A stretch of 64,000 nt of DNA from NCBI GenBank assembly GCA_937975855.1, contig CALJTT010000003.1:26901-90900 (forward strand), written 5' to 3'. The notes under the pieces were generated by a model. The model was not told the DNA's origin, did not search any database, and saw nothing but the letters and a program-made list of their open reading frames with translations. Source of the DNA: Minisyncoccota bacterium. GTDB taxonomy: Bacteria > Patescibacteriota > Minisyncoccia > Phycocordibacterales > UBA918. Every line of letters begins with the position of its first letter. Positions within the stretch are counted from its first letter, which is position 1. The position numbers and the translations under genes were made by a program. This document shows, piece after piece, positions 27,806 to 58,540 of this stretch.

Positions 27806-28615
27806 CTAGCCTGAACTGTTCGCGTGAACAAGGAGTTGCTCATTCGCAACCCTTCCCACAAGTTGCATATCCGTCGGATGTCCAGCAAACGCCGTCTCGA
27901 TCGATCCGCCCAACTGCGCGCCAGCCGGTCTGAGGTATTCGATAGCACCAAGTAAATCCAGAGCGCGATGTAGCGCCAGTTCCTTCAGTACAGCTCGCAG
28001 CCCTTCTTCGGTTCGAGCACGACGTAGCCAGACATGCTGATCGACAACACCATGCCATCTTGCATATGGCCACAACCACAACCTACCCATAGAACGGGCC
28101 GTTGCAATTCGCCTCAGATCATCGTTGCTTTCTAAAGAAACGCGAACTGTAATGCGTTCAGTTTTTGGATATTGAACCGAAACTGAGATGTTCAGTGGCT
28201 CAGATCCCGGTGTCCAAGTCAGAGTTTTTCTGCCCTCCAAAAAAGAGACTTTTTCAGAGACGGTGTAAACAGGCATATCTCGATTCTGCTCCAAAACGCT
28301 CTCTAAAGAGTCCCAGTGCAGCACTCCACCGTTTTCATAGGGCAATCCGTTTTTGCCGACCTCGATTTCAACACCTGACGCTCGGAGCAAATGCAATACG
28401 CCAAAGAGATGTTCAGGAATCAGCACACGGCGATTGCGGTCTCTGACATAGAGAGATCGAAACAGAAGACTAAAACACCCCATCTTCAGCGTATCCAGAC
28501 TCACACTGGCGTCACCACAACGCCACCAGACGCCGGGCGTTTCTACCCGACGTAAAGTAACTTTTGCTTGCATCCCCCAGTGGTTTCTACCAACAATTTC
28601 AGCAATTAACGTCAT
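27806..28615 (-). CDS. LpxC-family (UDP-3-O-acyl-GlcNAc deacetylase-like) metalloenzyme homolog
   Basis: Aligns by eye with E. coli LpxC landmarks: IPEHLFGVL (E78-H79), ARSMGRL (ARTFGFM), LHRALDLLGA (H238...D242), AGHPTD (H265). 269 aa. Preceded by GGAG 8 nt upstream of the ATG. Confidence 0.65.
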   Translation of the reverse strand: MTLIAEIVGRNHWGMQAKVTLRRVETPGVWWRCGDASVSLDTLKMGCFSLLFRSLYVRDRNRRVLIPEHLFGVLHLLRASGVEIEVGKNGLPYENGGVLHWDSLESVLEQNRDMPVYTVSEKVSFLEGRKTLTWTPGSEPLNISVSVQYPKTERITVRVSLESNDDLRRIATARSMGRLWLWPYARWHGVVDQHVWLRRARTEEGLRAVLKELALHRALDLLGAIEYLRPAGAQLGGSIETAFAGHPTDMQLVGRVANEQLLVHANSSG

Positions 28616-28782: not shown

Positions 28783-29907
28783 TTATTTGGCGAAAAACGC
28801 TTGTACTTGTCGCTTTTCACCTTGAGGGCAGTAGTACAAAGCCGAATTGCGATCGTAGATCATGTGAGTGACCGCTTCCGTTGGCGTGAGCAACGGGAAA
28901 CCCAGACTTGGATTTATGTCCGCCGGCGAGGGATCGGATCTGTACGAAACCCGCAATGTACCTGATGGTGTTGTTGCGAGATTGACATTGTGCCCGTTGC
29001 ACGGAACAGTCACTGAAGGATAGGCCACAGTTCGTGCAGCCTGACCGTAGGTTGCCGCTGGCGCCGGTGTGTAAACCGAAGCTTGGGCAGATGGTCGGAC
29101 TCCCCAGACGGCTGCCTGCTGCTGGGCACCCTGCCAACTTGCAGTCGGCTGAGCGGGAGCATGAGCCGCCGCGGACGTGCCATAGTCGTACGTCGTTCCA
29201 AATCCTGCAGATGATACTGTCGGGATTGCAGCGGCGTAAGAGTTGGTAGCAGCGTAAGTCGGCGACGCCGACTGGTAGGTTGGCGTTGCGTAGGTGTAAG
29301 TCTGACTCGCCGGAGGCTTGCTGACATAAGAAACGGCTTGCCCAGCGCTGTAAGCCGAAGCTGACGTTCCGGAAGTCACCGAGTACGTAGGCTGAGCATA
29401 CGCGATACGGGCTGGTGGTGGCGCGGGCACGTACGCTGACTGCGACGGTGCCGAGGTCCACACTGGCGCTGCCGCGACGGTGTTACTGCGTTGAACAACC
29501 TGCGCGTTACTGGACCGCGTCAGGTGACCAGTCTCAACAACTCCGTTTACTCGTGTTACGCGTACTGGGTACGCATAATCTGCAGTCCCGACGTAAACCG
29601 GAACGATGGAGTATCCCCAGTAAGAATCGACTCGGTGTGAATCCCAGACGCCATTGGCGCGTTGGGTTTCAAGCGAATTAACACGCGCGCCGCCGGAAAT
29701 CGATACGTTGACAATTTGCGTAGACTGCTCGACGAGCCTTGAACCGTTACCAGACCAGCTGGCCGTCGGTGCAGCACGCTCTGCTTTTTCGCAGGCTTGC
29801 CAATCAGAATCGCTTGCAGAAGCCAAGCCCGAAAACCCGACAGCCGAAAATAATCCGATTGCGATAGAAAGAACTCCCGAACGAATCCGGGTAAGAACAT
29901 AATTCAT
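28783..29907 (-). CDS. Secreted Ala/Pro/Ser/Thr/Tyr-rich protein of unknown function
   Basis: Start at ATG 29907, preceded by AAGGAG at 8 nt and by TTGACT-17-TTTAAT. Signal peptide MNYVLTRIRSGVLSIAIGLFSAVGFSGLASA. Long low-complexity middle and a Cys-containing C-terminal domain. About 60% GC in sampled lines. Confidence 0.7.
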   Translation of the reverse strand: MNYVLTRIRSGVLSIAIGLFSAVGFSGLASASDSDWQACEKAERAAPTASWSGNGSRLVEQSTQIVNVSISGGARVNSLETQRANGVWDSHRVDSYWGYSIVPVYVGTADYAYPVRVTRVNGVVETGHLTRSSNAQVVQRSNTVAAAPVWTSAPSQSAYVPAPPPARIAYAQPTYSVTSGTSASAYSAGQAVSYVSKPPASQTYTYATPTYQSASPTYAATNSYAAAIPTVSSAGFGTTYDYGTSAAAHAPAQPTASWQGAQQQAAVWGVRPSAQASVYTPAPAATYGQAARTVAYPSVTVPCNGHNVNLATTPSGTLRVSYRSDPSPADINPSLGFPLLTPTEAVTHMIYDRNSALYYCPQGEKRQVQAFFAK

Positions 29908-29992
29908 GGTAGTCACTCCTTCAAATTTTGGCGAAACGCCGTGACCCTACTATTAAAGACCGTGAACTGTAATAAGTCAACCTGTTTTGGTT

Positions 29993-30589
29993 CTATTTGT
30001 AGACACAGACTTCCCCTGTTCCATTCAATCTCACAACATCCTTCGCGGCCTCGTGGGCGGAATTTCCTTCACCGAAATAAATGTCGATCAATAGTGACTC
30101 GTCGTGGCCGTTGGTAACGCCAATTGTGTCGGTGATTTTATATAAATTGCCAGTTGGGCCGCCGACCCGCAGCAGCGTACCTGGCGCTAGTGTATTGGAA
30201 GCGGCGGTGCCGGGTCGATCTGGAAAGTTGGGGTCGTACGCAACCAGACATTCGCCATGCGCGTCTAGTGGGCATGGCAGGTTGATGTGTACGTTTACCT
30301 TCCCGTCGCCATCGCTATCCCACAAACCGATAACGCCAAAGCGCTCGGTGATACCCATCCATTGCACTACAAACAACCGCAGGAAGTCGAAAGGCAAAAT
30401 ATCCCCCGCTGCTTTTACATAGTCTGTGTCGATCGGTGTGAAGTAGCCGGTCAAAGTCGCTGGCCTGATCTCGCAGCTGTTGGCCTGTACACTTGTAGTT
30501 GTGACATACACAGCTACCGCGACTGAAAAAGCCACGCCCACGTATAACATCCATCGTGTTTGTATCTGCTGCATAAAGTTAGAGTGCAT
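29993..30589 (-). CDS. Secreted 3D-domain (MltA/RlpA-like double-psi beta-barrel) protein
   Basis: N-terminal TM/signal, then VAYDPNFPDRPGT...LYKITDTIGVTNGHDESLLIDIYFGEGNSAHEAAKD, which matches the three-Asp 3D-domain pattern. Start uncertain (30589 or 30574). Confidence 0.6.
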   Translation of the reverse strand: MHSNFMQQIQTRWMLYVGVAFSVAVAVYVTTTSVQANSCEIRPATLTGYFTPIDTDYVKAAGDILPFDFLRLFVVQWMGITERFGVIGLWDSDGDGKVNVHINLPCPLDAHGECLVAYDPNFPDRPGTAASNTLAPGTLLRVGGPTGNLYKITDTIGVTNGHDESLLIDIYFGEGNSAHEAAKDVVRLNGTGEVCVYK

Positions 30590-32432
30590 CAGTCGAGGTC
30601 GCCAGCGTTAGTTCGGGTTCAACTGCTTCTTCTGTCGCAGGCACCTCTATCGGGTCTAGTTCTATTAAAACTTCATCATTAACTTTTTCCTCCAACTCTC
30701 GCTCCTCAATAGCCTCACCCAAGCTGGTCGTTTGGTCGACACCCATAAGTTCAATCATCTCTAGAGAGAAGCGTGGCTGCGGCTGGCTAGCCACAACCGT
30801 TTGAGATGTAGTAGTTGCAACGGGCTCTGAAGTACTGGCGAGCGATTGTGTGTCGACAGGCAGAGTCGTTAAAGCTGTGGTGGTTGCAAACATAGCTTCG
30901 ACCAGCGTCGTGGTTGCCACTACAAATGCATCTATGGGCGAAGTAGTCGTACCGTTGGCAGCATCAACCGATTTAACTTCTTCTGTTGTGGAAGCGGTTG
31001 TGGTGACGATCTTTTGTGATGTTGTGCTGACGAACGCCAAAACTCGCTCGTCGGGATTTTCAATAAAATTGATCAGCCCAGCATCAAGCTCCGGTCTTTC
31101 TCCGATGGTGTAAATAGAGGTTCCAAGTATTCCTGCAGCTTCCGCGTAGTTTCGAGATCGCTCAAATGATTCTGGGTAGTGACCCCAATCGTCCACCTCG
31201 CGTTCGCTGTCGAGCCAACCAATTCCCACCATGACGCGATCGGCAATGTCTGGCGCCATCTGCTGCCAAGCATCGACTTCCCGTTCCCAAATACCTTGGG
31301 TCGAGCTGTATTGCATGACGTGAATAACGTCGAGCAAATCACGTCTCAGCCAGGTCGTTGGATCTTGCTGGTAATGAAACGAGGTAGCGTCGAAAACTAG
31401 ACGAGGACTGTATGTTGCCTGGGTTCGCATTTCGTATATTTCAGTTTTACTATCCTCAATCGGAGTTGTAATGAACGGGTTGTCGGGAGTCGCCTCGTAC
31501 CACTCACGGAACCACTGTGGCGTCTCACCTTCCCAAGTTACCTCTGTTGTAGTGGCATTCAGATCACCCCAGCGCCCGCCAGCATAGCTGTACAGCAATG
31601 GAAAGACGGCCGCTGACAATTGATAGTCTTTGCTGGTAGACGCACTGACAGAATCAATCGCTGTCGAGATAATCTCAACTGTGTCTGTGATGCAGGCGGT
31701 CTTTTCTTCATCTGCCATTTCCCAACCAGGGAAACGAATATAGTCGAGTTCGATCCCAGCAAGCTGAGGATAGAGCTCCAGTACGGCTGTTACCCATGTC
31801 TGCTGCGCCTCACGTTCTTCTTCCTCGCACAGGTCAACCCAGATGGCTTCTTCAACCCACTGGTCTTCTGTCAATCTTTTTCCGTTGACGATCCAGGCAT
31901 GGACGTCGACATCCTCGGACGAGAACAAGTCGAGGGCAGCTGCAAAGTCATTATGGTTTCCTACTCCTCCACCGATCAACTCGCCAGACTCGTCGAACAT
32001 CGCTGGGAAGCGCAGATAGACTTCGGTTAGACCAAGTGCCTTGGCGGTTTCAAAAGTTTCGGCCAAAGGTGAGTTTGGATCAAGACTGTCCGTAGTCGAC
32101 GCCGTTGTAGACGCGGCGGTAGTGGAACTGGTGCTAGTAGATGCTGTCAGCGAGCCTGTCTCTGTCGTGGTCGCAATATTTAAATCTTGCTCAACACTAG
32201 ATGTCGCAGTCGAAGTAGCTACAGCTAAACTGGTGGTCGACACCTCTGACACTGTCGAGGTAGCGAAGGATGCGGTTGTGGTCGCAGTAGTACTTGAATA
32301 TTCTGTGATCACAACTACCTCGGGCACAGTCGACGCAATAGCCGTCGCCTCCAGCCACGCACCGCGTTCAGCTGCAAATAATTGCACTGGTAACAAAACA
32401 AAGAATAATAGAGTGGGTAATGTGTATTTCAT
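30579..32432 (-). CDS. Secreted Ser/Thr-rich protein with a putative glycoside-hydrolase-like TIM barrel (DUF4015/GHL-like)
   Basis: Signal peptide MKYTLPTLLFFVLLPVQLFA and T/S-rich linkers at both ends. The core has LAGIELDYIRFPGW, typical of the GHL/DUF4015 family. Confidence 0.5.
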   Translation of the reverse strand: MKYTLPTLLFFVLLPVQLFAAERGAWLEATAIASTVPEVVVITEYSSTTATTTASFATSTVSEVSTTSLAVATSTATSSVEQDLNIATTTETGSLTASTSTSSTTAASTTASTTDSLDPNSPLAETFETAKALGLTEVYLRFPAMFDESGELIGGGVGNHNDFAAALDLFSSEDVDVHAWIVNGKRLTEDQWVEEAIWVDLCEEEEREAQQTWVTAVLELYPQLAGIELDYIRFPGWEMADEEKTACITDTVEIISTAIDSVSASTSKDYQLSAAVFPLLYSYAGGRWGDLNATTTEVTWEGETPQWFREWYEATPDNPFITTPIEDSKTEIYEMRTQATYSPRLVFDATSFHYQQDPTTWLRRDLLDVIHVMQYSSTQGIWEREVDAWQQMAPDIADRVMVGIGWLDSEREVDDWGHYPESFERSRNYAEAAGILGTSIYTIGERPELDAGLINFIENPDERVLAFVSTTSQKIVTTTASTTEEVKSVDAANGTTTSPIDAFVVATTTLVEAMFATTTALTTLPVDTQSLASTSEPVATTTSQTVVASQPQPRFSLEMIELMGVDQTTSLGEAIEERELEEKVNDEVLIELDPIEVPATEEAVEPELTLATSTDAL

Positions 32433-36659: not shown

Positions 36660-38294
36660 TTATGTGGCAGGGTTGTTATCCTCATCTTCGTCTCGATCTC
36701 TCTTGTAAAACAAGTACCAAAGAGACGCCAACGTTATAAATGGAACTAGAAGTAAGAGAGCCCACATCCAATACGCTGCTTGCCAATACCATTTCGCCAA
36801 GGTTGAACTGGTAGCGTTTGCCTCTCCATAGAAATTCACTGGTGTCTCGTAGCGACTGGCAACACGGGCGTCGTAGTCAAACACCTCAACTACGATAGCT
36901 GAAGGGCCAGCAAACATGATCGGGGCGATGGTTGCTTCGTACGCTTGTCGATCACTACTTTCACGTAGCAAAAACGAAAACGTATAACCTGAACCGCGCG
37001 GGTCGTAAATTGTGGCTACAATAGATTTGAATTGGCCGTCGATGGCTTCAATTGGCAACGAGATCGTAAACGGCTGGGTGCTGTCGAGCTCTAGTTCCTT
37101 GTTTGAAAATGCCCAAGTATCGTCTGTCTGAGTTACCGTAAAATCTCTGAGCCGAGGAAAACCTTCGTTTTCAAGAGTGCCTAACTGGGGCTGGTTTTCT
37201 TCTGTGGTTATAGTGACTCCTCCTCGACCGTCTTGAGTTGACGATTCACCTTGTCCCGCCGACGCTCCTGTAGAGCCGGCAAAACCACCTCTCGCGGCTG
37301 ACCTATCAACAACCGCTACTGCCCCAGAAGAAATCTGACCGTTCGGGTTGATCACAAATACTGAATAATAAACACGCGACCATTCGAGCAAAACGTTTTC
37401 GTCTCGAACTGTCTCTTGTCGCCCTTCATAGATAACAACGCCGTCATTTATGGATTGTGGGTAGCCAAAGTAATTACGCACTACGCGAACTGTCGCTCCA
37501 GGAAAAATGTCAGCCGGCAGTTCATAAGTTATGATGACATCATCTCCTTCCGGCGTGGCATTCAAGCGACTGACATTAGCTGGTGCAAAAGGAACCGAGT
37601 CATCCAGAGTTACAAAGGACCCTCGCTCCAGAACCGTCTGACCACCAGAGGGTGTGTAGCCTATAACTTCGTAATAATATTGCGTGGCAGGACTCAGATC
37701 ATCGAGCCAAACTGAGTGATCGGTTTTGTATTCGTTGCCAACAATATATGCAATCTCATAAGAACTGGTAAGGCCGATTCGCACTTCCACCTGAACGTTA
37801 CTATTTGTCTCCAGATTCAAAGCGGCGGTAGTAGTTCCAGGTATAACAACACTTGATTCCAAAATTACTCTAGCCTGAGTTGCTTCTCCGATACTCGGCT
37901 CAGGATCTGGTGGTATAAAAATATCAAGTGTAGACGTTGCTTCAGGCAAGGACAATATCGAATAGTTAGGAAACCCATCAAAAGCCGCCACTTCATAAAA
38001 ATAAGTCGTGGACGCCGACAGGCCGGTGTCGTTGTATGCTGTGGCCGTAGTGGTGGCAATAGCGAACCCGTCGCGGAAAACCACATAACCAAACACACCA
38101 AAGTTATCAGTCGAGGTCGACCAAGCAAGATTGATCTGGCTACTAGATACTGGCGTGATATTTTCGATAACTGGTGATGACGGGTCGATAGAATCAGTCG
38201 CGCCAAAGACTTTTATAGTAAAGTCGCTGGTTCCTTGCGCCCCAACCAACTGCGGCAGTAATAATATTAAAAATAGTGAAGCGAGTCTGATCAT
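36660..38294 (-). CDS. Secreted FN3-repeat protein with a C-terminal TM anchor
   Basis: Signal peptide MIRLASLFLILLLPQLVGA and three FN3-like modules (e.g. SSQINLAWSTSTDNFGVFGYVVFRDG...YFYEVAAFD). C-terminal helix WALLLLVPFITLASLWYLF + KRDRDEDED. ATGA overlap with the upstream gene. Confidence 0.75.
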   Translation of the reverse strand: MIRLASLFLILLLPQLVGAQGTSDFTIKVFGATDSIDPSSPVIENITPVSSSQINLAWSTSTDNFGVFGYVVFRDGFAIATTTATAYNDTGLSASTTYFYEVAAFDGFPNYSILSLPEATSTLDIFIPPDPEPSIGEATQARVILESSVVIPGTTTAALNLETNSNVQVEVRIGLTSSYEIAYIVGNEYKTDHSVWLDDLSPATQYYYEVIGYTPSGGQTVLERGSFVTLDDSVPFAPANVSRLNATPEGDDVIITYELPADIFPGATVRVVRNYFGYPQSINDGVVIYEGRQETVRDENVLLEWSRVYYSVFVINPNGQISSGAVAVVDRSAARGGFAGSTGASAGQGESSTQDGRGGVTITTEENQPQLGTLENEGFPRLRDFTVTQTDDTWAFSNKELELDSTQPFTISLPIEAIDGQFKSIVATIYDPRGSGYTFSFLLRESSDRQAYEATIAPIMFAGPSAIVVEVFDYDARVASRYETPVNFYGEANATSSTLAKWYWQAAYWMWALLLLVPFITLASLWYLFYKRDRDEDEDNNPAT

Positions 38295-39058
38295 AGCGGC
38301 AGTGCAGTTACAGTTGTCGTAGCATAATAAACGCCAGTCTCAACATTTGCTCCGCTGGAAATACCCACCCTAAAATGCACTGAAGTTGTCGCTCCTAGGG
38401 GATGATTAGATCCAACACCGCGAGCGATCTCAGTTGCACTAGTAGTCAGTCCAGTCCAGCAAGCAAACGCAGTGTCTCCAGTTCCGACACCACAGCTGGC
38501 GCCGTTGTCCTTATAAGCGCTGGCGATGTCGTCGCCCTCGGGAGTAAAGCCAAACTCGGCTGTCGCTGCCGGGACTGAGAACGTGAAGTCTGCACTACCG
38601 ACCTCTGTGTAGTCGGCAATAGAAGCACCGTCCGTTCGCTGCATCGCTGGATCATTTTCCGCTTCGATAGTCAGTTGATACCCGGCTGGGCTGTCGGTCA
38701 CAACTGTAAAGGTCGTAGAACCATTTGATGTACCGCCAGTTATTCCTGGCAAGTCTACATCCATCACAATCGGACCGCCCCCAGCTAGACTTAAAAAAAC
38801 TTCTTGCATTTGTTGGTAGCCTGCTTTTAGAGAAAAGTTCGTACTATCCGACGGACCGGTTGCGATCTCACCCACAGTGCTTTCTTGCACATACGAGGCA
38901 GAGTTGGAGAGTCCGCCGCCGACATTAATACTGTCGCTTTGCAATTGGTAATTATTACTACTGCGCACTTGTGCGTGCGACACAGAAAAACTACTTACCA
39001 ATAAAATTGTCACAACAAGACTGATACATGTTGTTGTAATAGCAAACGATAATCTCAT
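38291..39058 (-). CDS. Secreted beta-rich protein, paralog A of the locus (WxL-protein-like layout but no WxL motif)
   Basis: Signal peptide ...SFSVSHA|Q. Segments shared with the 244-aa paralog: GITGGTSNGSTTFTVVTDSPAGYQLTI, a C-x10-CW loop (CGVGTGDTAFACW), GATTSVHFRV...YYATTTVTALPL. Confidence 0.65.
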   Translation of the reverse strand: MRLSFAITTTCISLVVTILLVSSFSVSHAQVRSSNNYQLQSDSINVGGGLSNSASYVQESTVGEIATGPSDSTNFSLKAGYQQMQEVFLSLAGGGPIVMDVDLPGITGGTSNGSTTFTVVTDSPAGYQLTIEAENDPAMQRTDGASIADYTEVGSADFTFSVPAATAEFGFTPEGDDIASAYKDNGASCGVGTGDTAFACWTGLTTSATEIARGVGSNHPLGATTSVHFRVGISSGANVETGVYYATTTVTALPL

Positions 39059-39061
39059 GCG

Positions 39062-40051
39062 TTAGGCTTTTCGTTTAAATTCAAATGTTTTGAGGAACAA
39101 CCTGATCAAAAATACAACCATGAACACTACTCCAAAAATAAGTAACAGCAGTTTCCAAGGTAGCACCCAGAAAGTAACCTCTACAGTATCCAGTATATCA
39201 TCGTAGCCGCGGTTGACTGTCGCTTTGGCTGTGTAGCGTCCAAATAAAAATTCTCGATCCCAGGTTACTTCACGAGTACGGATGGACTGCGGCAGAACAA
39301 ACCACGGTTCCATTTCAACTCGACCGACCTCTTCACCAAAGACGTTGGCGATGGTTAGTTCTCCGTATGGGTTCACATGGATAGTACCGGTGTTTTCATA
39401 AGCGATAGCTAGTTTAATCGGCCCCGACTGGTACCACCATTGACTAGGTAAAGTTGAAAGGTCGATTGTTTCACCACTTCTACTTATATCTCCTTCTACA
39501 GTAAGAAAAACGTGTGAACCTACGCGGGCGATGATTGGATTGCGCGGCGCGACTTCATTTCCATCTTCACCCAATTGAACAGTTGATACCAATACACTAC
39601 CGTAGTAACCACCAGGCTCGGCGTCTGGAGGAACAGTAATGGTTACTGGGATGCGAGCACGCTCGCCAAGGTTCAAAGTAAAAGTGTCCTCAGGAAACGA
39701 AACGTAATCACGAATACTGTATGGTCCACGCTCTCCCTCGATGACTTGCAGCGCTGCGCTACCGTCGGCCGTACCAGAAATATCTTCTACCTGAAGTTTG
39801 AAAATTCGCTGCTCACTGATTCGGTTAGTAACCGTAACCTCGCGCACCATACTCTCGCCGGGCTTGAGAGAGACCTCTGCCCTACCAGGTCCGACTACAA
39901 AATCACCCACGTCAATTCGGCCAGAAATAGTTTCTGTGACATACCAAGGGTCTACAACCACGGGAGTAGTCAAAGGTTCATCCGTTTGTGCAAATACAAA
40001 AAATGGAGAAAAGGCTAGGAGTAATGTCGGCCAAACTCTCTTTGCGATCAT
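39062..40051 (-). CDS. Two-domain surface protein with a C-terminal TM anchor (DUF916/DUF3324-like, inferred)
   Basis: Signal peptide MIAKRVWPTLLLAFSPFFVFA and two beta-sandwich-like halves (GRAEVSLKPGESMVREVTVTN...; ARVGSHVFLTVEG...YENTGTIHVNPYGE). C-terminal WKLLLLIFGVVFMVVFLIRLF + KTFEFKRKA. The size and layout are those of WxL-cluster CscA-type proteins. Confidence 0.5.
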   Translation of the reverse strand: MIAKRVWPTLLLAFSPFFVFAQTDEPLTTPVVVDPWYVTETISGRIDVGDFVVGPGRAEVSLKPGESMVREVTVTNRISEQRIFKLQVEDISGTADGSAALQVIEGERGPYSIRDYVSFPEDTFTLNLGERARIPVTITVPPDAEPGGYYGSVLVSTVQLGEDGNEVAPRNPIIARVGSHVFLTVEGDISRSGETIDLSTLPSQWWYQSGPIKLAIAYENTGTIHVNPYGELTIANVFGEEVGRVEMEPWFVLPQSIRTREVTWDREFLFGRYTAKATVNRGYDDILDTVEVTFWVLPWKLLLLIFGVVFMVVFLIRLFLKTFEFKRKA

Positions 40052-40066: not shown

Positions 40067-40801
40067 CTAGAGGTTGTAGAGTGACAAGGTCGCTGTAGCC
40101 GTGTAAGTCTCAGCCACAGGTGTTGGCGTAGCTCCACTTGGCACAGTTACATTGAACTGGACTGAAGAAGTTGCTCCAGTGACAGCAGCGCTACTTCGTT
40201 CAACAATTCGAAAGGCAGCCGTATCTGGCGCTTTCCAACATGGGACCGTCTGTATTCCGCCGGTGTTACAGTCAGATCCGTCGTTTAGGAAAGACTGGTC
40301 TGTATCAAGCGTGCTGGACGAAGTTACTGTGTAAGCAAGCTGTGCAGAGGCACTAGTAGTGTAACCAAATGACGGTTCACCAGTAACGTCTCCCTCATAG
40401 TCGACAATAGCTTCACTTGCTGACACGTCTCCGATCATAGCTTCCGTCGTTCCGTTGTTAAAAAAGGCAATGTCAACATAGTATCCAGCGCCGTTGTTGG
40501 TTAGTACTACAAACTGAGTAGTCCCAGTAGCCTGTCCACCTGTAACACCACCAATGTCTCCAGTCATCGTTACGTCTGCCGGTTCTACCAAGAACGAGCT
40601 TTCAGCTGTGATAGTTTGTCGAATGATGAACTCTGAAGTGTCTTCCTGACTACGAGTAATTTGTGGCTCTAATATACTAAATAAAACTGCAAATCCAACT
40701 AGTGCACCGAAAGCAACGACGGTTGCATTTTGGGCAGCTGGGGTAATGTATGTGGCTTTCATACTACGTATAGTATCAGCTTTGGGGTTGACTTTACTCA
40801 T
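40067..40801 (-). CDS. Secreted/anchored beta-rich protein, paralog B of the locus
   Basis: N-terminal hydrophobic segment VVAFGALVGFAVLFSIL, GVTGGQATGTTQFVVLTNNGAGYYVDI, a C-x11-CW loop (CNTGGIQTVPCW), GATSSVQFNV...YTATATLSLYNL. Confidence 0.65.
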   Translation of the reverse strand: MSKVNPKADTIRSMKATYITPAAQNATVVAFGALVGFAVLFSILEPQITRSQEDTSEFIIRQTITAESSFLVEPADVTMTGDIGGVTGGQATGTTQFVVLTNNGAGYYVDIAFFNNGTTEAMIGDVSASEAIVDYEGDVTGEPSFGYTTSASAQLAYTVTSSSTLDTDQSFLNDGSDCNTGGIQTVPCWKAPDTAAFRIVERSSAAVTGATSSVQFNVTVPSGATPTPVAETYTATATLSLYNL

Positions 40802-40824: not shown

Positions 40825-43800
40825 TTAAACTGTTTCTTCCTCTACTATTTCGTCAGTTTCAACCGGTATTTCAGACTCTGATTCAACCAAATTTTCTTCC
40901 GGGACATTCTCGTCTATGACAACCTCTTCGTCAGAACTTTCAGCTGGAGACAGGGCTTCTTCTATGAGTGTCTCTGGTAACACTGATGCCGTAGTGGTCG
41001 CCTCTCCTTCAATCTCTTCAGGCATATTGACAACTACAGGATCCTCTTCGGCTTGTGTGTCAGTATTACTGGCGCTAATTGTAGCTGGTTCAGAGTCGAC
41101 TTCCTCAGCGATCACTCCCAACCCTTCCTCTTCACTTTCTATAACCGGCTCTGGGTCTTCTCCTATGACCGTAGGTGCACTTACACTTGTACCTAACTGC
41201 GACTCAATCGCCTCAAGGCGTGATCGCAAATCTTTGTTTTCTTTCTCTAACAAGTCCACCCTTTCTGTATTCCCCGTCACCACCTCCCACATCTCCCGCA
41301 ACGCCTCTAGGATGTAGAACGGTAGCGAACGGAAGTCCACCTGGCGGTACCCATCATTGTTGCGAGACACTAGTTCTGGGAACTGTTCTTCCACGTCTTG
41401 GGCGATTAAACCTGTGACTACACTAGCCTGACTCTTTTTGTACGTGTCGGCTGCTAGTTCGTTCCACTGGTATGTGACAGGGTCTAGGGCGACCAGACGT
41501 TCGATGTAGCTGCGGCCGTCGCTAGAGAGCGGGTCGATGTTCGTCTTTAGACGTTCGTCTGAGGTACAGGTTCCCCCGATATTTCCTCCAGCGAAGTCTT
41601 CGATGCAGCCGTTGGTACCGCTATTTCCGACACGGATATCTCCGTATACTTGAAGTTTTTGGGCGGGGGTGGTGGTGCCGATACCGATGTTGCCGGTAAT
41701 CAGATCTCCAAAGATAGCATCAGCAATATTCAACTGATGAGAAGCGGTAGGTGAAGTAGCCTCGACAGAGTAACCAATCAAAACATTGTCAGAACCAGTC
41801 TTGTGATTTCTACCTGCTTGGTGACCAATGAAAATATTATTGTCAGCACCAGTTTCTAGAGATAGGCCTGACTGATAACCAAAAGCTGTAAGATTTGCAA
41901 CTTCAGCACCAACTACCGCACCTCTACCAGTCTGGTATCCAAACACTGTAGCAGCAGTAGACGTCGAAATATTCCTAAGTGTATTGTAGCCAAAAGCAGA
42001 TACAAAGTTACTTGTGTTTTGGTATGCACTATTACGGCCAAAGGCAGAAACAGAGCTGCCTGTGTTTTCGAAGGCGCTATTTTGACCAAAAGCGGATACA
42101 AAGTCACCTTTGTTTTGGTATGCACTATTACGGCCAAAGGCAGAAACAGAGCTGCCTGTGTTTTGGTATGCACTAACTGTTCCAAATGCTGAAAGGCTGT
42201 CTCCTAAATTTTGGTAACCGGCCTCGGATCCTACAACCGTGATTTGATCACTCACAGTAGTAGAACCAGATTCATATCCAGCAAAGTATCCTAGCGCTAC
42301 ATTGTCCAAGCCTGTACCATTAAAAGAATTCCCTGCACTTACCCCCAAAGCGAGAGAATCAGAAGTCACGTTATAAATACCATCAGTCAGGTCATCTACA
42401 GACAGAGTCTCCGACAGAGCGCTACTGGCGTCAGTCCATTCTACACCAGAGCCATTTGACGAGAACAACTGCCCGACAGTACCAGCACTATAGGCATTGT
42501 CGTAAAGAGAGCCGGTCAGCATAGCATTCCCGTCGACAGTTAGTTTAGTGAAGGGAGTGGTGGTGCCGATGCCGATGTTGCCGGAAGAATCAATCGTCAA
42601 ACGTTCAATTGAATTTGTCCATAGTGAAAAATCATCGTCAGAATGGTTGTAGGCAAGTCTACCACGACTAGAGTTTTCTATATCACCAAAATAAATACTT
42701 CCCACAGCAGAGTTTCCGGACAAAATAGTCATACCAGCGTTTCCAGTTTGATCAATCAAAAAATCATCAGCAGAATTTGACGGATCTCTGCCTGTGGGAG
42801 AATTTTGTGTCTGGATATGAAGACCTGCAGCTGGACTACTTGTTCCAATCCCCACAAACCCCGTACTAAGATCACTAAAGAGAACGTTACCAATATTAAG
42901 CTCCTCCGAGGCTATGGGTGAAGAAGTCTCCGCGCTGTAACCAATCAAGATGTTGTCACTACCTGTAGTAACATTTTTTCCAGCCTCAAAACCAATAAAG
43001 AGATTATTGTCAGCGCCGGTCTGCAGGCTTCGTCCAGCACGGTAACCAAAAGCTGTAAGATTTGCCACTTCCGCCCCACCTAGGTCACCTTGCCCGGCCT
43101 GATAACCAAATACAGTAGCTGCCGTGGAAGTAGATATGTATCGAAGAGTACTGTGTCCGAAAGCAGAAACTCCAGTACCTACGTTTTTATAGGCACTGTT
43201 TACACCAACAGCAGTGAGAGCAGTGCCTGTATTATTAAAGGCGCTGTTTACTCCCATAGCCGTAAGACCATTTCCCCTATTACCTTCTCCAGCATTTACC
43301 CCCATAGCGGTGAGTGAGCCCCCCGTATTTGAAACAGCAGCGTTTACACCGATAGCAGTTGCGTTATCTCCTTTGTTAGAAAAAAGAGAGTTATATCCCA
43401 TAGCTGTATTGTCAGCGCCGGTGTTTTCGTACCCAGCCTGATATCCGATCAGCGTAATCCGATCTGAGTCAGTGGTACTTCCAGATTCAAAGCCAGCCTG
43501 GTATCCAATAGCGATGTTACCGAGGCCAGCTGCATTAAACGCGTTCCCAGCGTCCTCTCCCAGAGCTAGTGAGTCACTCGTACCGTTGTACAGCCCATCG
43601 GAGAGGTCATTGATTGCTAGCACGCCGGATAACGCCGCGTTAGCATCCACCCAATCAATGCCGGCCCCAGTGCTAGAAAGGAGCTGACCGTTAGTACCAG
43701 CGCTGTATGCGTTGTCATAGAGACCCCCAGTGAACATGGCGTCACCGGCGACGGTTAGTTTGGTGAAGGGGGTGGTGGTGCCGATTCCGATGTTGCCAGT

Positions 43801-45417
43801 ACTCAAATTACCGAAAATAGCATCTCCAATATTGAGCTGATTAGAGCCGGTGTTATTTGGAGCCTCAACATCGTAGCCAATAAGTATATTGTTTGAGCCA
43901 GTCGTTAAGGAGTCACCCACCCTGTACCCTAAAAAAAGGTTACTAGAACCAGTAGTCAGGTTTTCGCCTGCGTAAGCCCCCAAACCCGTGTTGCCGGAGC
44001 TTGACGTACTCAGATAAAAAACTGATGAACCGATCGCTGTGTTATTTGAACCCTCCTCATTGCCAGATAGTGCAATGAAACCAACCGCAGTGTTGTCAAA
44101 TCCAGTAGTATTGTTGGCGAGTGATCCTGATCCAAAAGCGGTCAAATCGTAACCTGTGGTGTTAAAACTAAAGACATTGTCAGTTAAGCCAAAATTACCA
44201 GCCCCTGAGTCATTGTGTAAAATTGGAGTCCCGTTTTGGGTAATTAAGACATGACTGGTGGTAGCTAAATTTAATTGACCACCTACCGACAAGATATCAC
44301 CATCAAACGTCAAATCAGCCGAATCAGTCAGTGCTGTCGCTCCACTGTTTGTGAAAGTAATCCGGTTAGCTGTGAACGAACTTTGGCTGTCGGTAAGAGA
44401 TAAGAAAGTTGACGCTCCCCCAATCCCAAGCGTACTAGTCGCCACCCACTCAAGACCAGAGCCGGTAGTCTGCAAGACCTGGCCGTTGGTGCCGCGAGTA
44501 TAGTTGTTGTCGTATATACCGGCAGCGAACAGAGCGTCCCCATCGACAGTGAGAGTATACAAGGGGGAGGTGGTGGATAGACCAATATTGCCATTTTGTC
44601 TTATGTATAGGGAAGAAGACAAACCATCTGGTCGAAAGAAGTTTGTATTCCCATCGTCTTCAAAAAGAACGACACCAGCCCCATCTCGTTGAAGTCTGAG
44701 GCCGGGCGTATTTGCTTCAAATGTCCATTTTTCACCACCTAGGGCTGTATTTTGAAGGGTTAAGTCTGGAGAGGCGCCAGCTACGTGTAGCATACTAGCT
44801 GGCGAACTCGTTCCAATCCCTACATTTCCCCCATCTGTTACCGTAAATACTTTGGTTCCGCTATCCAATAGACTAAGAATGTCTCCCGTACCTGACTGGT
44901 TGATAGTAAGTAGTGTCGATGACTCGGTAGCTGTCATAACATCCGCCTGGTCTGAGCGTAAAAAAGACGAAGACGCGATACCGTCTAATAATACACTGTC
45001 GTTTGCGGTCTGAGCCACAAATGCTGCCGGCACTGTGCCGAGAATCTTTCGCGGCGTCATTTCCCCGTCACTATCGATGTTTACACCCAGGTACAACGTC
45101 TGGTCAAAGTCTACACTCGTAAACGCCGTAGTCGATCCCAGCATGACCGAGAACAGACCGTTTACTACCGGTACCTGATTTGCACCAACGAGAGTTTCCG
45201 TCCAAATAGCAGACCCACCAGAGGCAGCGGTATACAGCCTGAACTCCATGTCGTAACTGCCGTTTGCGACAGCCACACCGGTCGAGTCAGTTAGCTTCCC
45301 TTGATAGTTGATCTGCGGATTCGCCTGCGCAAATACTGTAAGCGCAACAAAAAACAACGACAGTCCAAACGCACACATGGCATATTTTATGAAAACTGAT
45401 GTGTATGATTTACTCAT
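40825..45417 (-). CDS. Giant tail-fibre-like surface protein with a C-terminal S74-type intramolecular chaperone domain
   Basis: Start at ATG 45417 (MSKSYTSVFIKYAMCAFGLSLFFVALTVFAQA), 8-nt overlap with the upstream gene. Four copies of GNIGIGTT(S/T)P..KL.V.GD. Repeated NTA(I/M)G-type short beta-repeats. SDERLKTNIDPL...GLIAQDVEEQFPELV...VDFRSLPFYILEALREM matches the phage tail-spike/endosialidase chaperone (Peptidase_S74) pattern. Then a coiled coil and an about 150-aa acidic tail. Confidence 0.8.
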   Translation of the reverse strand: MSKSYTSVFIKYAMCAFGLSLFFVALTVFAQANPQINYQGKLTDSTGVAVANGSYDMEFRLYTAASGGSAIWTETLVGANQVPVVNGLFSVMLGSTTAFTSVDFDQTLYLGVNIDSDGEMTPRKILGTVPAAFVAQTANDSVLLDGIASSSFLRSDQADVMTATESSTLLTINQSGTGDILSLLDSGTKVFTVTDGGNVGIGTSSPASMLHVAGASPDLTLQNTALGGEKWTFEANTPGLRLQRDGAGVVLFEDDGNTNFFRPDGLSSSLYIRQNGNIGLSTTSPLYTLTVDGDALFAAGIYDNNYTRGTNGQVLQTTGSGLEWVATSTLGIGGASTFLSLTDSQSSFTANRITFTNSGATALTDSADLTFDGDILSVGGQLNLATTSHVLITQNGTPILHNDSGAGNFGLTDNVFSFNTTGYDLTAFGSGSLANNTTGFDNTAVGFIALSGNEEGSNNTAIGSSVFYLSTSSSGNTGLGAYAGENLTTGSSNLFLGYRVGDSLTTGSNNILIGYDVEAPNNTGSNQLNIGDAIFGNLSTGNIGIGTTTPFTKLTVAGDAMFTGGLYDNAYSAGTNGQLLSSTGAGIDWVDANAALSGVLAINDLSDGLYNGTSDSLALGEDAGNAFNAAGLGNIAIGYQAGFESGSTTDSDRITLIGYQAGYENTGADNTAMGYNSLFSNKGDNATAIGVNAAVSNTGGSLTAMGVNAGEGNRGNGLTAMGVNSAFNNTGTALTAVGVNSAYKNVGTGVSAFGHSTLRYISTSTAATVFGYQAGQGDLGGAEVANLTAFGYRAGRSLQTGADNNLFIGFEAGKNVTTGSDNILIGYSAETSSPIASEELNIGNVLFSDLSTGFVGIGTSSPAAGLHIQTQNSPTGRDPSNSADDFLIDQTGNAGMTILSGNSAVGSIYFGDIENSSRGRLAYNHSDDDFSLWTNSIERLTIDSSGNIGIGTTTPFTKLTVDGNAMLTGSLYDNAYSAGTVGQLFSSNGSGVEWTDASSALSETLSVDDLTDGIYNVTSDSLALGVSAGNSFNGTGLDNVALGYFAGYESGSTTVSDQITVVGSEAGYQNLGDSLSAFGTVSAYQNTGSSVSAFGRNSAYQNKGDFVSAFGQNSAFENTGSSVSAFGRNSAYQNTSNFVSAFGYNTLRNISTSTAATVFGYQTGRGAVVGAEVANLTAFGYQSGLSLETGADNNIFIGHQAGRNHKTGSDNVLIGYSVEATSPTASHQLNIADAIFGDLITGNIGIGTTTPAQKLQVYGDIRVGNSGTNGCIEDFAGGNIGGTCTSDERLKTNIDPLSSDGRSYIERLVALDPVTYQWNELAADTYKKSQASVVTGLIAQDVEEQFPELVSRNNDGYRQVDFRSLPFYILEALREMWEVVTGNTERVDLLEKENKDLRSRLEAIESQLGTSVSAPTVIGEDPEPVIESEEEGLGVIAEEVDSEPATISASNTDTQAEEDPVVVNMPEEIEGEATTTASVLPETLIEEALSPAESSDEEVVIDENVPEENLVESESEIPVETDEIVEEETV
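41960..42200 (-). repeat. In-frame 48-nt (16-aa) tandem repeats with a 54-nt block duplicated exactly at 96-nt spacing
   Basis: 42011-42064 is identical to 42107-42160. Encodes VSAFG(R/Q)NSA(Y/F)(Q/E)N(T/K)G.. units. A diverged block of the same 16-aa unit lies at about 43200-43400. Confidence 0.85.
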
Positions 45418-45976
45418 GGTTGATGTAGGTCCATTGTGCCTGAGTAATCGGATGCTCGACAAAACGTTTTTGTTCCGCCCTTACTTCATCGGTCTCTGAA
45501 AAGATCGGCCGTAAACTATCGCTAGGTTGATTGGGAAGATCACTGACGTTTTGTGTGACCACAACCGACGCCGTATTATTTTGCATATCCCCCGGCACAG
45601 CATTGAAAAAATAAAAACCTGCTACTCCTCCTGCCAAAAACATCCCTAGTGTAAGAGCGTGAGCATAGACATGGCTGTGAGATTTTTCTACAGACTGATC
45701 CGTTTGCTTTGTATACGTTTTTTTCTTTTGCACTTCCTCATTTGCCAACTGCTCGTGCTTTGTTCGTAGATCACTATCTTGATCCCTCACTAACATGTAA
45801 GAACGGAAAGAGTCATCGTTTACATACCATTGCTGGTTAATCTCAACAGCTTTAATTTTATGATCTTTAGCCAGCTGTGTAACGTATTCACCAGAACAAG
45901 AAAAAACCTCTGCAACAGTTTGTACAGCGATGAAATTTTGGTCGTTTATGTTGATACTGCCCGGTACAAACTTCAC
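45410..45976 (-). CDS. Membrane-tethered protein with an N-terminal HTH-like (excisionase/MerR-like) domain
   Basis: GTG start at 45976 with TATAAAAT 6-8 nt upstream. N-terminus IAVQTVAEVFSCSGEYVTQLAKDHKIKAVEINQQWYVNDDSF, one TM (ALTLGMFLAGGVAGFYFF) and a short C-terminal tail. Confidence 0.55.
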   Translation of the reverse strand: MKFVPGSININDQNFIAVQTVAEVFSCSGEYVTQLAKDHKIKAVEINQQWYVNDDSFRSYMLVRDQDSDLRTKHEQLANEEVQKKKTYTKQTDQSVEKSHSHVYAHALTLGMFLAGGVAGFYFFNAVPGDMQNNTASVVVTQNVSDLPNQPSDSLRPIFSETDEVRAEQKRFVEHPITQAQWTYINHE

Positions 45977-46028: not shown

Positions 46029-47051
46029 CTAGTCGCCGATCAATTGCTCAAAAAACTTCTGTGGATCAAGTCGCACGCTGTTAGTATGCCCTTCACCCGT
46101 AATAGTAACTTCAGTTTCCAGCATCAAGAGAAACAATCCCACAATCATAGAGACCAGCACTAAAGACAACGCTTGCCACAGACTAAGACCCTTTTTGTTA
46201 GCCTTAGCTTCGTCAGGGCTAACTATGTACAAATCACCAGAATCCGATTCTTCATAAAACTCGTCAGCAAGTTTCTCAGGTACAACTAAATCAAGATCCG
46301 GATCATGTTCATACTCAGCGGGCAAGTCCGTCTCCTCAATAGCTTCAGAAATATCAGCACTCTCCTCAATCTCGCTAGACAAAACTTCCTCTTCAACAAC
46401 CACATCTTCAGTTTCAGTGACCGCGGTTTCTCCAACAGGAGTTTCAGGCACCAAGTCTTCTTCTGGTGGCGGAAATTCCCGAGATTCTTTCACAGAAAGC
46501 TTGCCAGACAAGGATATCTCGGGTAGTTTTTCACTCTTAAATTTTGTTTGTTTATTTGCCGAAGATACAGGCACAGTTACCGCAGGAGTCCGTTCGACTA
46601 CGACAGTTTTTTTGCCGAGATCTTTTGTTACGTCAGGATGTTCTACCTTACTCTTCAGAATAGGAACAAGGACTCCTTCGTCAGAAGCGTAAGTTGCACC
46701 CACAGAATCAGACGATCGCACCGTACGACCCTGGCGAGATAGTCTGGCGGTTTTAGAACGTAACATCGGCTCGACACTCTTAGAAGACTTACGCCTCATC
46801 GTACTTTCCTTCTTTCTAGGGGTCGCGGGCTTGGCTTTGACAGCAACAGCCCCCTCTTTTAGAGCTTGATGTTTGGTCTGCCTATAGGCAGAGACTGAGA
46901 ACGGATCTACATACCAGACGCGGCCAACGCGCCTAGCGTCGACTTTTTTAGAGCGACAAAGCTGGCCCACGTAATCTTGAGTATAACGAAACTTCTTCGC
47001 GATCTCTGACGCTCTTAAATATTCTTTCCCGCTGAAGACGATCCTTTGCAC
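46029..47051 (-). CDS. Membrane-tethered protein with an N-terminal HTH-like domain (paralogous N-terminus)
   Basis: EYLRASEIAKKFRYTQDYVGQLCRSKKVDARRVGRVWYVDPFSV, a long charged linker and a TM (ALSLVLVSMIVGLFLLML). The ORF track starts at TTG 47075. I prefer GTG 47051 because TGGTACAAT lies 7 nt upstream of it. Confidence 0.55.
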   Translation of the reverse strand: MQRIVFSGKEYLRASEIAKKFRYTQDYVGQLCRSKKVDARRVGRVWYVDPFSVSAYRQTKHQALKEGAVAVKAKPATPRKKESTMRRKSSKSVEPMLRSKTARLSRQGRTVRSSDSVGATYASDEGVLVPILKSKVEHPDVTKDLGKKTVVVERTPAVTVPVSSANKQTKFKSEKLPEISLSGKLSVKESREFPPPEEDLVPETPVGETAVTETEDVVVEEEVLSSEIEESADISEAIEETDLPAEYEHDPDLDLVVPEKLADEFYEESDSGDLYIVSPDEAKANKKGLSLWQALSLVLVSMIVGLFLLMLETEVTITGEGHTNSVRLDPQKFFEQLIGD

Positions 47052-47058
47052 TGGGGTA

Positions 47059-47067
47059 ATTGTACCA
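47059..47067 (-). promoter_or_regulatory. Extended -10 TGGTACAAT, 7 nt upstream of GTG 47051 (leaderless candidate, head of the surface locus)
   Basis: Minus-strand TGGTACAAT-tacccca-GTG. Confidence 0.4.
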
Positions 47068-47111
47068 GATGGCAAAATTTAATCTGATCAAATATGGGGA
47101 GAAAAGGTGGA

Positions 47112-56605: not shown

Positions 56606-58540
56606 CTACTCCGTCACCTGAGACTCAAGCAGATCGATCACCGAAACAGCTAGCGGATGTTTGACCTTCTTAGCTTTAAACAGTTTATTCAGAACATCTA
56701 TTTGCTGCAGGCTTTGTGAGACTGTTCGTTTTTCAGATTTCTCGAAGTACTTCTCAATCCAACGAGTGAAAAACTTACGCTGTTGCGTCGTTGCATCTGC
56801 CAGCACAATGTTCAACAGCTCCGCTAATTCAATTTCTGAAATTGGCCCTTCCGTGATTTCTCCAGTCTCAAGATCGAAGGTGAAAGTGGTCGTCACACCC
56901 GGAAGAGTTTCTCCAGAAGCGGTGAAAGTTGTAGTCTCTCCAAACTCGTCGACGGTGAAGAATTCAAATGTAAACTCACCGACACCTGTGCCGACAACCT
57001 CTATAGTAAACTGCTCGCCAGCTTCGTACACCAGCAAGTGCTTGCCTTCATCAGCGCCAGCCAGAGCTCCGTCAAGGGCAATAATTTCGATATCACCGTA
57101 ACTAGCTTGCTCGAGGTCCACAACTACTTGCCCAGCGTCGTAACCAACCTGATCACCAGCAATGTTTTCAAACAACAGTTCGGCTGTCGCACTAGTTAAG
57201 TGAGCTTCAATACTTGTGCCACTTAGGCTTTCTGCACTTTCGCTAATGTTCAACACACGTGCGTCTGTAAAAGCATTGTTGTAGTCACGCACATAAGTAG
57301 AAGTGGCTGTTTTAACATCGTCAGCCGTCAGAGTGTTGTACCACCACGGGTCCAGCACAGTGTATTTGCTATCTGTTTTGTCAGCGAGCCACACATAATG
57401 TCCATCCTGGTAAGCTAGCACGACACTTCCCTCCTCACTCAACGAGTCGTCAATAAACGACATCGCAGGCTGGCTACCTGGCCGCACCGGCACTGCATTC
57501 AAACGCGACGCTAGTGTGCCGTCACTTTGGAATTCGCTAAAGTACGCTCCCGCTGCCAACCAACGCAATGCCCCATTACTAGTGTAGCCATCGACAGATT
57601 GTAGGTATTCATTAAAGTTTCCTGGATTTACATCAGCGCCCAGCACGTCTGTTGTAATATCCGCATCGCGTCCAGCCATCACCAATGAAGTCAGCACACA
57701 ACCGCACTCTCCGACAGTACTGCCACACCATCCACCATTTCCACCGTTATACAAATCACTCGCCCAAGATGCAGTTTCAGATTCAGACGGATAAGGAGAT
57801 TCGATTTGAGTGTACAGTCCTGGCCGGTCAGAAGGATCATCGTCACCAATAGTGTAGGTGATTTCGAGATAAGGGTCAGTGGAGGTCCCGAGGGCTTCGG
57901 AGGAAGCAATCGTAGCAGATCGGCGCTGTCTTCCTGGATCAATGTTGTCAAAATCGTATTCTGTTAACAAACCCACAACCGTGTAGCCATCTTTGTTAAG
58001 ATGTTTTTTTCCACCCTCTGAAAAAATAAATTCCGTTTTTAAGCCACCAGTGTTAACGACTCCGCGACTGAATGGATCCGTCCCAAAATTATCTATACGC
58101 CAATCTTGCTTATTGTAAACAGTATCAATTTGTCTTGAGTGAGATGTGATCACTATCTCTATTCCGTCATTTGCACTGTACCCTTGGCTCGCAACAAGTC
58201 GAACCTCATTCAGAGTAGCGTCCGTCGGAACTACGCTTGTGTCAAAAGGAATAGACCCTCTATAAATTCTATAATTCCCTACTCCTCGGTCTGAACGCAT
58301 GGGAATCTCTTCAAGCAGCACAGCTGGACTTAGACTAATCTCCCCAGAAAAAGCACGAGCTTGCTCCCAGTCATAAACTGCGTCAAGATCGCCTAAAGAT
58401 GCGACTCCGTCACTATGATGTGAGTAAATTTTAATTGTCTCAGTTTCCTTTGCGTACAAAGGACCAGAAAATAACAAACCTAGAATTAAGGTAAAAATTA
58501 GTCCTAAATGTTTGCAAGATATACAATTGTGAACGAACAT
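56606..58540 (-). CDS. Secreted multidomain protein with a central papain-like (Peptidase_C39-like) domain
   Basis: Signal peptide ...LLFSGPLYA. WCGSTVGECGCVLTSLVMAG (candidate Cys), VVLAYQDGHYVWLADK...VLDPWW (candidate His). Flanking beta-rich domains and a helical C-terminus. Confidence 0.5.
   Translation of the reverse strand: MFVHNCISCKHLGLIFTLILGLLFSGPLYAKETETIKIYSHHSDGVASLGDLDAVYDWEQARAFSGEISLSPAVLLEEIPMRSDRGVGNYRIYRGSIPFDTSVVPTDATLNEVRLVASQGYSANDGIEIVITSHSRQIDTVYNKQDWRIDNFGTDPFSRGVVNTGGLKTEFIFSEGGKKHLNKDGYTVVGLLTEYDFDNIDPGRQRRSATIASSEALGTSTDPYLEITYTIGDDDPSDRPGLYTQIESPYPSESETASWASDLYNGGNGGWCGSTVGECGCVLTSLVMAGRDADITTDVLGADVNPGNFNEYLQSVDGYTSNGALRWLAAGAYFSEFQSDGTLASRLNAVPVRPGSQPAMSFIDDSLSEEGSVVLAYQDGHYVWLADKTDSKYTVLDPWWYNTLTADDVKTATSTYVRDYNNAFTDARVLNISESAESLSGTSIEAHLTSATAELLFENIAGDQVGYDAGQVVVDLEQASYGDIEIIALDGALAGADEGKHLLVYEAGEQFTIEVVGTGVGEFTFEFFTVDEFGETTTFTASGETLPGVTTTFTFDLETGEITEGPISEIELAELLNIVLADATTQQRKFFTRWIEKYFEKSEKRTVSQSLQQIDVLNKLFKAKKVKHPLAVSVIDLLESQVTE

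Follow-up and report, generated by a model that had tools for sequence, protein, structure and literature searches.

The 64,000-nt stretch of Minisyncoccota DNA analysed here (GenBank assembly GCA_937975855.1, contig CALJTT010000003.1, positions 26,901 to 90,900), referred to below as the window, carries at 40825..45417 an open reading frame (ORF) of 1530 codons plus stop, which we read, with a probability of roughly 0.7, as the gene for a trimeric surface fibre that is exported through the Sec pathway, resembles the mosaic adhesive trimer (MAT) fibres of Bdellovibrio bacteriovorus, is assembled by a C-terminal S74 domain and is then cleaved, an acidic tail being discarded together with the chaperone. 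The protein comprises, from its N-terminus, a signal peptide, a conserved N-terminal domain (N-domain), three big modules that bear capping-loop motifs, a Peptidase_S74 chaperone and a 121-residue tail. All coordinates given without a locus name refer to the window, and all the features for which they are given, in the fibre gene and around it, lie on the minus strand.

Domain architecture of the fibre

The frame is open over 40825..45462 from a TTG codon, while the ATG at 45417 gives the 1530-residue product; an identical 1530-residue protein (P0001) is present in the public protein collection. Its N-terminus, MSKSYTSVFIKYAMCAFGLSLFFVALTVFAQA followed by NPQINYQG, displays a basic start, then 19-20 hydrophobic residues and then an AQA↓N site, and an AxA boundary directly precedes the conserved domain in 95 homologues as well. 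Because of these properties residues 1-32 (45322..45417) are read as a putative Sec signal peptide with predicted cleavage at AQA↓N, in line with the N-terminal signal or anchor noted in a preliminary description of this DNA. The signal peptide is followed directly by the β-rich N-domain (residues 33-175; 44893..45321), presumably the cell-proximal end of the fibre. The sole NCBIfam match of the fibre is to Bdello_MAT_N (NF053851) in this region, with E-values of 5e-5 for the whole protein and 3.5e-8 for the isolated N-domain, and the same model is matched by 24 of 24 aligned N-domains of the family (best E-value 6.6e-13).

MAT fibres, as described in B. bacteriovorus (Caulton et al. 2024, PMC10769870), carry a signal peptide and an invariant β-rich N-domain of ~130 residues, thought to reside at the cell surface, and present trimeric, β-helical shafts with capping loops. 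They terminate in S74 domains with the sequence SDxxxK in 13 proteins and in other tips in 8, and for one of the former, Bd3182, self-cleavage has been demonstrated at the S74 serine, S782 (PMC10769870). A comparable division is observed here, as the N-domain lies directly after the signal peptide in 99 of the best 120 homologues while 35 of them have an S74 end, which mirrors the split between S74 and non-S74 MAT fibres. The source names of the homologues include Paceibacteria, Kaiserbacteria and Nomurabacteria. In a search of the full library, a profile of the N-domain retrieved 46,378 cluster representatives at E<=1e-3, a number that falls to 22,895 at E<=1e-10; among the matches listed the domain is nearly always N-terminal, and the proteins reach lengths of about 4,800 residues. 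Against the Protein Data Bank (PDB) the same profile found no convincing solved relative, the sole match being a baseplate protein (E=0.075), and our literature search found nothing specific on S74 fibres in Patescibacteria.

The capping-loop motif GNIGIGTTxP..KL, located over the 1530-residue protein with the regular expression G[NF][IV]G[IL][GS]T..P, occurs in six copies that start at residues 197, 276, 541, 853, 946 and 1242 (nucleotides 44829, 44592, 43797, 42861, 42582 and 41694, respectively). The preliminary description had counted four (44592, 43797, 42582 and 41694), all of which are real; missing from its list were the copy at 44829, which occupies residues 197-212 (44782..44829), and that at 42861 (residue 853). 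The internal triplication that it had proposed, with lengths of 264, 404 and 295 residues, agrees with the measured spacings of 265, 405 and 296 residues and rests on similarity far beyond chance. The modules were compared by windowed self-comparison with blastp and tblastn, whole-protein self-BLAST being a procedure that culls contained matches. Module B (residues 541-945; 42583..43797) opens with motif copy 3 and module C (residues 946-1241; 41695..42582) with copy 5, and the two are ~58-60% identical between residues 539-868 of B and 944-1257 of C (E=1e-62 in blastp, 3e-119 in tblastn). Module A (residues 276-540; 43798..44592), which opens with copy 2, is a more diverged third copy with ~33% identity to B (E=4e-31). 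The 405-residue spacing contains a separate insert of ~93 residues (853-945), opening with motif copy 4 at 42814-42861. The short NTA(I/M)G-type repeats reported previously are real as well and correspond to 16-residue (48-nt) tandem units of the type xNSAYxNxGxxVSAFG, of which modules B (about 43156-43443) and C (about 41989-42228) contain five or six each; they also appear as 48-nt repeats in the DNA, those of module C as repeat family D1. The shaft ends in the predicted mature C-terminal tip (residues 1242-1285; 41563..41694), which contains two conserved cysteines, Cys1271 and Cys1284, besides motif copy 6.

When the repeated motif region was compared with the PDB, it matched solely five chains of Bdellovibrio MAT fibres, at their own GNVGIGTxxPxxKLxV motifs. 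Designed Kelch "SAKe" proteins, the top PDB matches of a single-sequence search, were discarded as spurious, the scores being sums of weak repeat matches.

The S74 chaperone and the acidic tail

In the whole fibre Pfam recognised one family only, Peptidase_S74 (PF13884), at residues 1286-1350 (E=2e-13; 50.8 bits against a cut-off of 22), and the S74-type C-terminal domain suggested by the preliminary description is thus confirmed by a profile search, its sequence pattern, SDERLK...ALREM, being found at 41290-41562. In an alignment to solved chaperones, Ser1286 (41560-41562) and Lys1291 (41545-41547) of the motif SDERLK (41545..41562) fall on SDxxxK, as anticipated for a catalytic Ser/Lys dyad, and the S, D and K of the motif are invariant in a profile of 19 family members. 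This profile matches phage S16 gp37 (PDB code 6f45; E=1e-14) and the ICA domain of the myelin regulatory factor MyRF (7dc3; 3e-13), and also a phage tail fibre (8jov), the neck appendage chaperone of phage GA-1 (3gud), whose structure starts at the released SDERHK, and T5 pb1 (8hqz).

An AlphaFold2 model of residues 1180-1530 as a monomer reaches a predicted local distance difference test score (pLDDT) of 85-93 at residues ~1289-1409, which form the S74 core and a single long helix. In combination with the Pfam match and a Foldseek search, the model delimits the chaperone to a core of residues 1286-1364 and a long C-terminal helix of residues 1365-1409 (41191..41562). The only significant Foldseek matches in the PDB were MyRF ICA (7dc3; 2.6e-6), the endoNF chaperone (3gw6; 8e-4) and, next, the GA-1 chaperone (3gud). 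Pfam match, profile comparison with solved chaperones, invariant S, D and K and predicted fold all agree with the earlier assignment of this region as an intramolecular chaperone. The heptad coiled coil that had been placed beyond the S74 domain is real (residues ~1365-1409, one confident long helix) but forms part of the chaperone instead of being added to it, because the predicted helix matches the helical part of known intramolecular chaperones. We infer that the fibre trimerises and undergoes autocleavage at Ser1286.

Residues 1410-1530 (40828..41190) constitute a 121-residue acidic tail, with 32 Glu and 7 Asp (39 acidic residues), no Lys or Arg and a net charge of -39, which is predicted to be disordered; the AlphaFold2 model assigns it no secondary structure, at pLDDT values mostly below 55. 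The Glu/Asp-rich stretch of about 150 residues noted at the outset corresponds to ~155 residues when counted from the end of the 96-residue S74 query segment (residues 1280-1375). At 80 viral and 80 cellular loci with S74 relatives, we measured how many residues separate the catalytic Ser from the stop codon; the loci were found with a 5-sequence alignment, the 19-sequence S74 alignment being too diverse as a seed. Viral relatives have a median of 101.5 residues after the Ser and none of the 80 reaches 180, while the cellular median is 121 and 15 of 79 extend to at least 180, these being mostly labelled Patescibacteria and including the closest matches. The five Bdellovibrio S74 relatives have 105-151 residues after the Ser, compared with 245 in the fibre. 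Most of the 35 S74-bearing proteins among the best 120 homologues present 100-170 residues past the S74 match, a count that starts at the end of the same 96-residue query and hence includes the helix, with 20-40% Asp plus Glu and few basic residues; these tails are alike in composition and have no alignable sequence. The view that a tail beyond the chaperone is untypical consequently stands in relation to the 80 viral homologues and fails within the closest Patescibacterial subfamily, where such a tail is usual. As judged from these sequences, the acidic tail is a trait of a Patescibacterial clade, atypical for phages and for Bdellovibrio, and not a one-off. A contig labelled Hyphomicrobiales (JANQLP010000180.1) also encodes a fibre that combines an N-domain of Patescibacterial type with an acidic tail and an S74 domain of 48% identity; the contig may have been mis-binned and come from Patescibacteria.

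A Cys located two residues before the Ser, here Cys1284 with Cys1271 as partner, is present in 24 of 80 cellular and in 0 of 79 viral relatives, a distribution that would fit folding in an oxidising, extracellular setting. The maintenance of the tail across the clade suggests selection, and could mean that the S74 domain trimerises the chains without cleaving them, so that chaperone and tail would stay in place as a functional distal end, for example one that binds cations or the host surface. Such an arrangement is nevertheless quite improbable, as the catalytic S, D and K are invariant in the family, the characterised S74 domains with SDxxxK, Bd3182 included, all cleave, and the tail is conserved in composition only and not in alignment.

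Genomic setting and the adjoining operon

ORFs of at least 150 residues in the 64-kb window were scanned against protein families. Every ORF with a family match is a housekeeping or envelope gene, and the scan detected no phage genes. The genes identified encode DnaE, ThrRS, GyrB, PheT, an ABC transporter, GAPDH, RpiB, Rpe, a split transketolase, GatB, Obg, SecA, MurB, a Wzy-like protein and glycosyltransferases, and the window also contains one tRNA. The gene order around the fibre, Wzy - MurB - SecA - Obg - GatB - two helix-turn-helix (HTH)-like genes - fibre - d1 - d2 - d3 - d4 - GAPDH - RpiB, is kept in three related Patescibacteria contigs (L001, L002 and L008, representing two homologue contigs and one Kaiserbacteria genome). 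The syntenic fibres comprise 906, 1655 and roughly 3000 residues, the last value being estimated from tblastn coordinates; their N-domains are 55-73% and their S74 domains 56-63% conserved, and the number of modules sets the length of the shaft.

The locus is chromosomal and cellular and contains no prophage. That the gene could encode the tail fibre of a prophage, of a prophage remnant or of a tailocin is suggested by PHROG matches to tail spike, tail fibre and virion structural families, of which the tail spike and virion structural matches span residues 288-661, and by the S74 domain itself. These resemblances are outweighed by the lack of any phage gene in the window scan, by the Sec signal peptide and by the position of the fibre between gatB and gap, which is repeated in the three other genomes. 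Furthermore, the closest relatives of the S74 domain are cellular, with up to 62-63% identity, whereas viral relatives do not exceed 37% in full-length matches and reach 42% in a single short match of 66 residues. A fibre of a prophage, prophage remnant or tailocin is therefore effectively refuted and has only a marginal chance of being correct; the preliminary description, which had already argued against a prophage, is upheld by the housekeeping flanks in this and the related genomes. Its term "domesticated" would presuppose transfer from a phage to a cell, a direction that is hypothetical, with the closest S74 domains being cellular.

The four genes downstream of the fibre, d1 to d4, display the features of an operon related to the Pam and WxL systems. 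The first, d1 (40067..40801), encodes a pilin-like secreted protein of 244 residues that is a paralogue of d3, as revealed by their cross-match; its orthologue in L002 gives a weak match to CPR_Pam_pilin_C (E=0.005). The d2 product (39062..40051) is a membrane-anchored, chaperone-like protein whose AlphaFold2 model (pLDDT 81.6) comprises two β-sandwich domains, of the WxLIP or PamC/D-like type, and a C-terminal transmembrane helix. Foldseek identified the Enterococcus faecium WxLIP structures 9i25 and 9i1y (1e-12) as its closest matches, followed by RbmA and chaperones of chaperone-usher systems, and Pfam a weak match to WxLIP_PGBD; d2 is highly conserved, with at least 1466 homologues, the best 120 being mostly about 60-70% identical. 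The fold of d2 ties the WxLIP proteins of Firmicutes to the Pam chaperones. The third gene, d3 (38291..39058), encodes a PamT-like protein of 255 residues that matches the NCBIfam model CPR_pilus_PamT with E=2.7e-12 and 46.6 bits, far below the equivalog cut-off of 240, and d4 (36660..38294) encodes fibronectin type III (FnIII)-like domains, recognised through weak Pfam matches to fn3 and Pur_ac_phosph_N, and a C-terminal transmembrane segment, an architecture similar to that of PamR.

None of d1 to d4 has an equivalog-level match to a Pam model, and when d1, d2, d4 and their orthologues were scanned permissively against the Pam models of NCBIfam, the one outcome was the weak pilin match in a single orthologue mentioned above. 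Because the Pam models match weakly or not at all, the operon is named Pam/WxL-like on fold and architecture and not on family membership. In architecture the resemblance is clear, d2 being a membrane-anchored chaperone of PapD/FimC-like type and d4 combining FnIII domains with a C-terminal transmembrane segment. As a Pam/WxL-like operon it is of a type whose products assemble a surface filament with the aid of chaperones. A Pam pilus of the candidate phyla radiation (CPR), with PamC/D, PamT and PamR, has been described in a preprint (Troman et al. 2026, 10.64898/2026.03.03.709456), which places the Pam pilins mainly in Saccharimonadia and Microgenomatia and notes, without analysing it, a "tail fibre-like protein" that consistently co-localises with pam operons.

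The two genes just upstream of the fibre encode proteins of 188 (45410-45976) and 348 residues (46029-47075), both with weak family matches that indicate an N-terminus similar to HTH_17 and excisionases, and both with a C-terminal transmembrane segment. They are kept in synteny in L001, L002 and L008 and, from their sequences, may be membrane-tethered regulators of the island. Elsewhere in the window, an LpxC-like deacetylase is encoded at 27806-28615 (Pfam E=1.4e-12); the genome would be expected to have neither an outer membrane nor lipid A. Five sizeable ORFs of 198-781 residues (5479-7824, 28783-29916, 29993-30589, 30579-32432 and 56606-58540) match no Pfam family.

Proposed assembly and role, and comparison with known systems

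In the assembly pathway that we propose, the signal peptide would be removed after residue 32, and the S74 chaperone (residues 1286-1409) would bring three chains into register, upon which the shaft, with its three duplicated modules, capping-loop motifs and 16-residue repeats, would fold starting from its C-terminal end. Ser1286, activated by Lys1291, would then cut the chain, leaving a mature fibre of ~1250 residues per chain with its N-domain at the cell surface and freeing a 245-residue fragment that consists of chaperone, helix and acidic tail. The tail, free of Lys and Arg and predicted to be disordered, would serve for a limited time: during assembly outside the cell it would keep the end exported last in solution and compatible with export, and it would then be discarded together with the chaperone. 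A role as a disposable, export-compatible extension, serving solubility or tethering, is the explanation of the tail that we favour. As to function, the analogy with MAT fibres, by means of which the predator Bdellovibrio seizes its prey, the Pam/WxL-like operon alongside and the episymbiotic lifestyle of cultivated Patescibacteria suggest that the fibre is likely to serve in contact with host cells.

Several observations weigh against this proposal. The matches to Bdello_MAT_N all lie below the 60-bit cut-off of the model, and the alignment shown spans model positions 7-78 of 162. The shaft and the tip part present in the AlphaFold2 model (residues 1180-1530) were modelled with low confidence, as would be expected for the tip of an intertwined trimer when one chain is modelled alone. 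The link between the fibre and the operon is positional only. Finally, in three further syntenic genomes found via d2 (L163, L164 and L165), the slot that lies upstream of d1 is taken by giant proteins unrelated to the fibre, which lack the MAT N-domain, the capping motif and the S74 domain and have in common a different C-terminal domain. These slot proteins (L163:6403-9135, L164:126-9155 and L165:1-9200) range from 910 to over 3600 residues, and their shared domain of ~110 residues (...VTLGG.SD.WGR.W...NANFAVR...QVRVY...) ends in a poly-Gly run.

The same neighbourhood bears on the main rival, according to which the fibre is physically built into the Pam/WxL-like filament, for instance as an adhesin at its tip or side that docks via the N-domain on pilin-like or PamT-like proteins, its assembly being assisted by d2. 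The fibre adjoins d1-d4 in the same orientation in the window and in L001, L002 and L008, a fibre with N-domain in another locus (L043) adjoins two d2-like genes, and the similarity network of the preprint (10.64898/2026.03.03.709456) centres pam neighbourhoods on the tail fibre-like protein. The strong conservation of the mature N-terminus immediately past the signal-peptide site would also suit a docking function. Nevertheless, the paper on Bdellovibrio MAT fibres, whose N-domain appears to be related, describes no Pam system for them (PMC10769870), many N-domain paralogues in other genomes and phyla lack a d1-d4 homologue in the flanks examined, and the giant proteins that occupy the slot in L163-L165 have no N-domain. 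We thus regard an integral filament component as unlikely and retain the MAT-like surface fibre as the preferred interpretation. A more speculative and rather doubtful extension would combine the two: the tail would adapt a phage-type chaperone to post-Sec, extracellular work, and the fibre would be displayed on or anchored by the Pam/WxL-like filament, yielding a composite "pilus plus phage-like fibre" organelle for host capture.

Patescibacteria, which live in attachment to other cells, account for a large part of bacterial diversity, and to our knowledge host recognition is unexplained for most of them. The conserved chromosomal island described here unites a MAT-like S74 fibre, a Pam/WxL-like surface-filament operon and two membrane-tethered HTH-like proteins. 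The fibre architecture is extremely common and almost entirely uncharacterised outside Bdellovibrio; with the N-domain present in ~46,000 cluster representatives, a function for this architecture would annotate many "hypothetical" giant proteins. The features most worth attention are the place of the fibre in a conserved surface-structure island and the clade-specific acidic tail on its chaperone, which gives access to the question of how an exported protein could be served by a chaperone that arose for the assembly of phages in the cytoplasm.

The arrangement resembles the pam neighbourhoods of CPR bacteria (10.64898/2026.03.03.709456) in that a gene for a tail-fibre-like protein lies beside an operon encoding membrane-anchored chaperones of PapD-like type, a PamT-like protein and an FnIII-transmembrane protein. 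In contrast with the pam set, d1-d4 occur here in a Paceibacteria/Kaiserbacteria-like genome, and the fibres of the two are likened by neighbourhood only. The chaperones of K1F endosialidase (3GW6), GA-1 (3GUD), T5 pb1 and S16 gp37 (6F45) share with the fibre the domain, the catalytic motif, the predicted fold and the long C-terminal helix. Folding of the phage proteins takes place in the cytoplasm; they lack a signal peptide and stop shortly past the helix, whereas the fibre is predicted to be exported and bears an acidic extension. The ICA domain of MyRF (7DC3), the best structural match of the predicted chaperone, exemplifies a cellular, non-viral use of S74, although MyRF is a eukaryotic membrane-tethered transcription factor without such a shaft or acidic tail.

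The closest correspondence is with the S74 subgroup of MAT fibres, such as Bd3182. In both, a signal peptide, predicted for the fibre, would be followed directly by a conserved β-rich N-domain, and both display a long shaft punctuated by the GN(V/I)GIGTxxPxxKLxV capping-loop motif and a C-terminal S74 chaperone with SDxxxK, both belong to families that mix S74 and non-S74 ends, and both are chromosomal, cellular and non-viral. They differ in that the N-domain of the fibre scores below the cut-off of the MAT model and in that its host is a Patescibacterium with a presumed single membrane, while Bdellovibrio is a diderm predator; the fibre, in addition, has the 121-residue acidic tail, the Cys pair just before the predicted cleavage site and the Pam/WxL-like operon alongside. 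The fibre is thus a lineage-specific variant of the cellular S74 fibres of MAT type.

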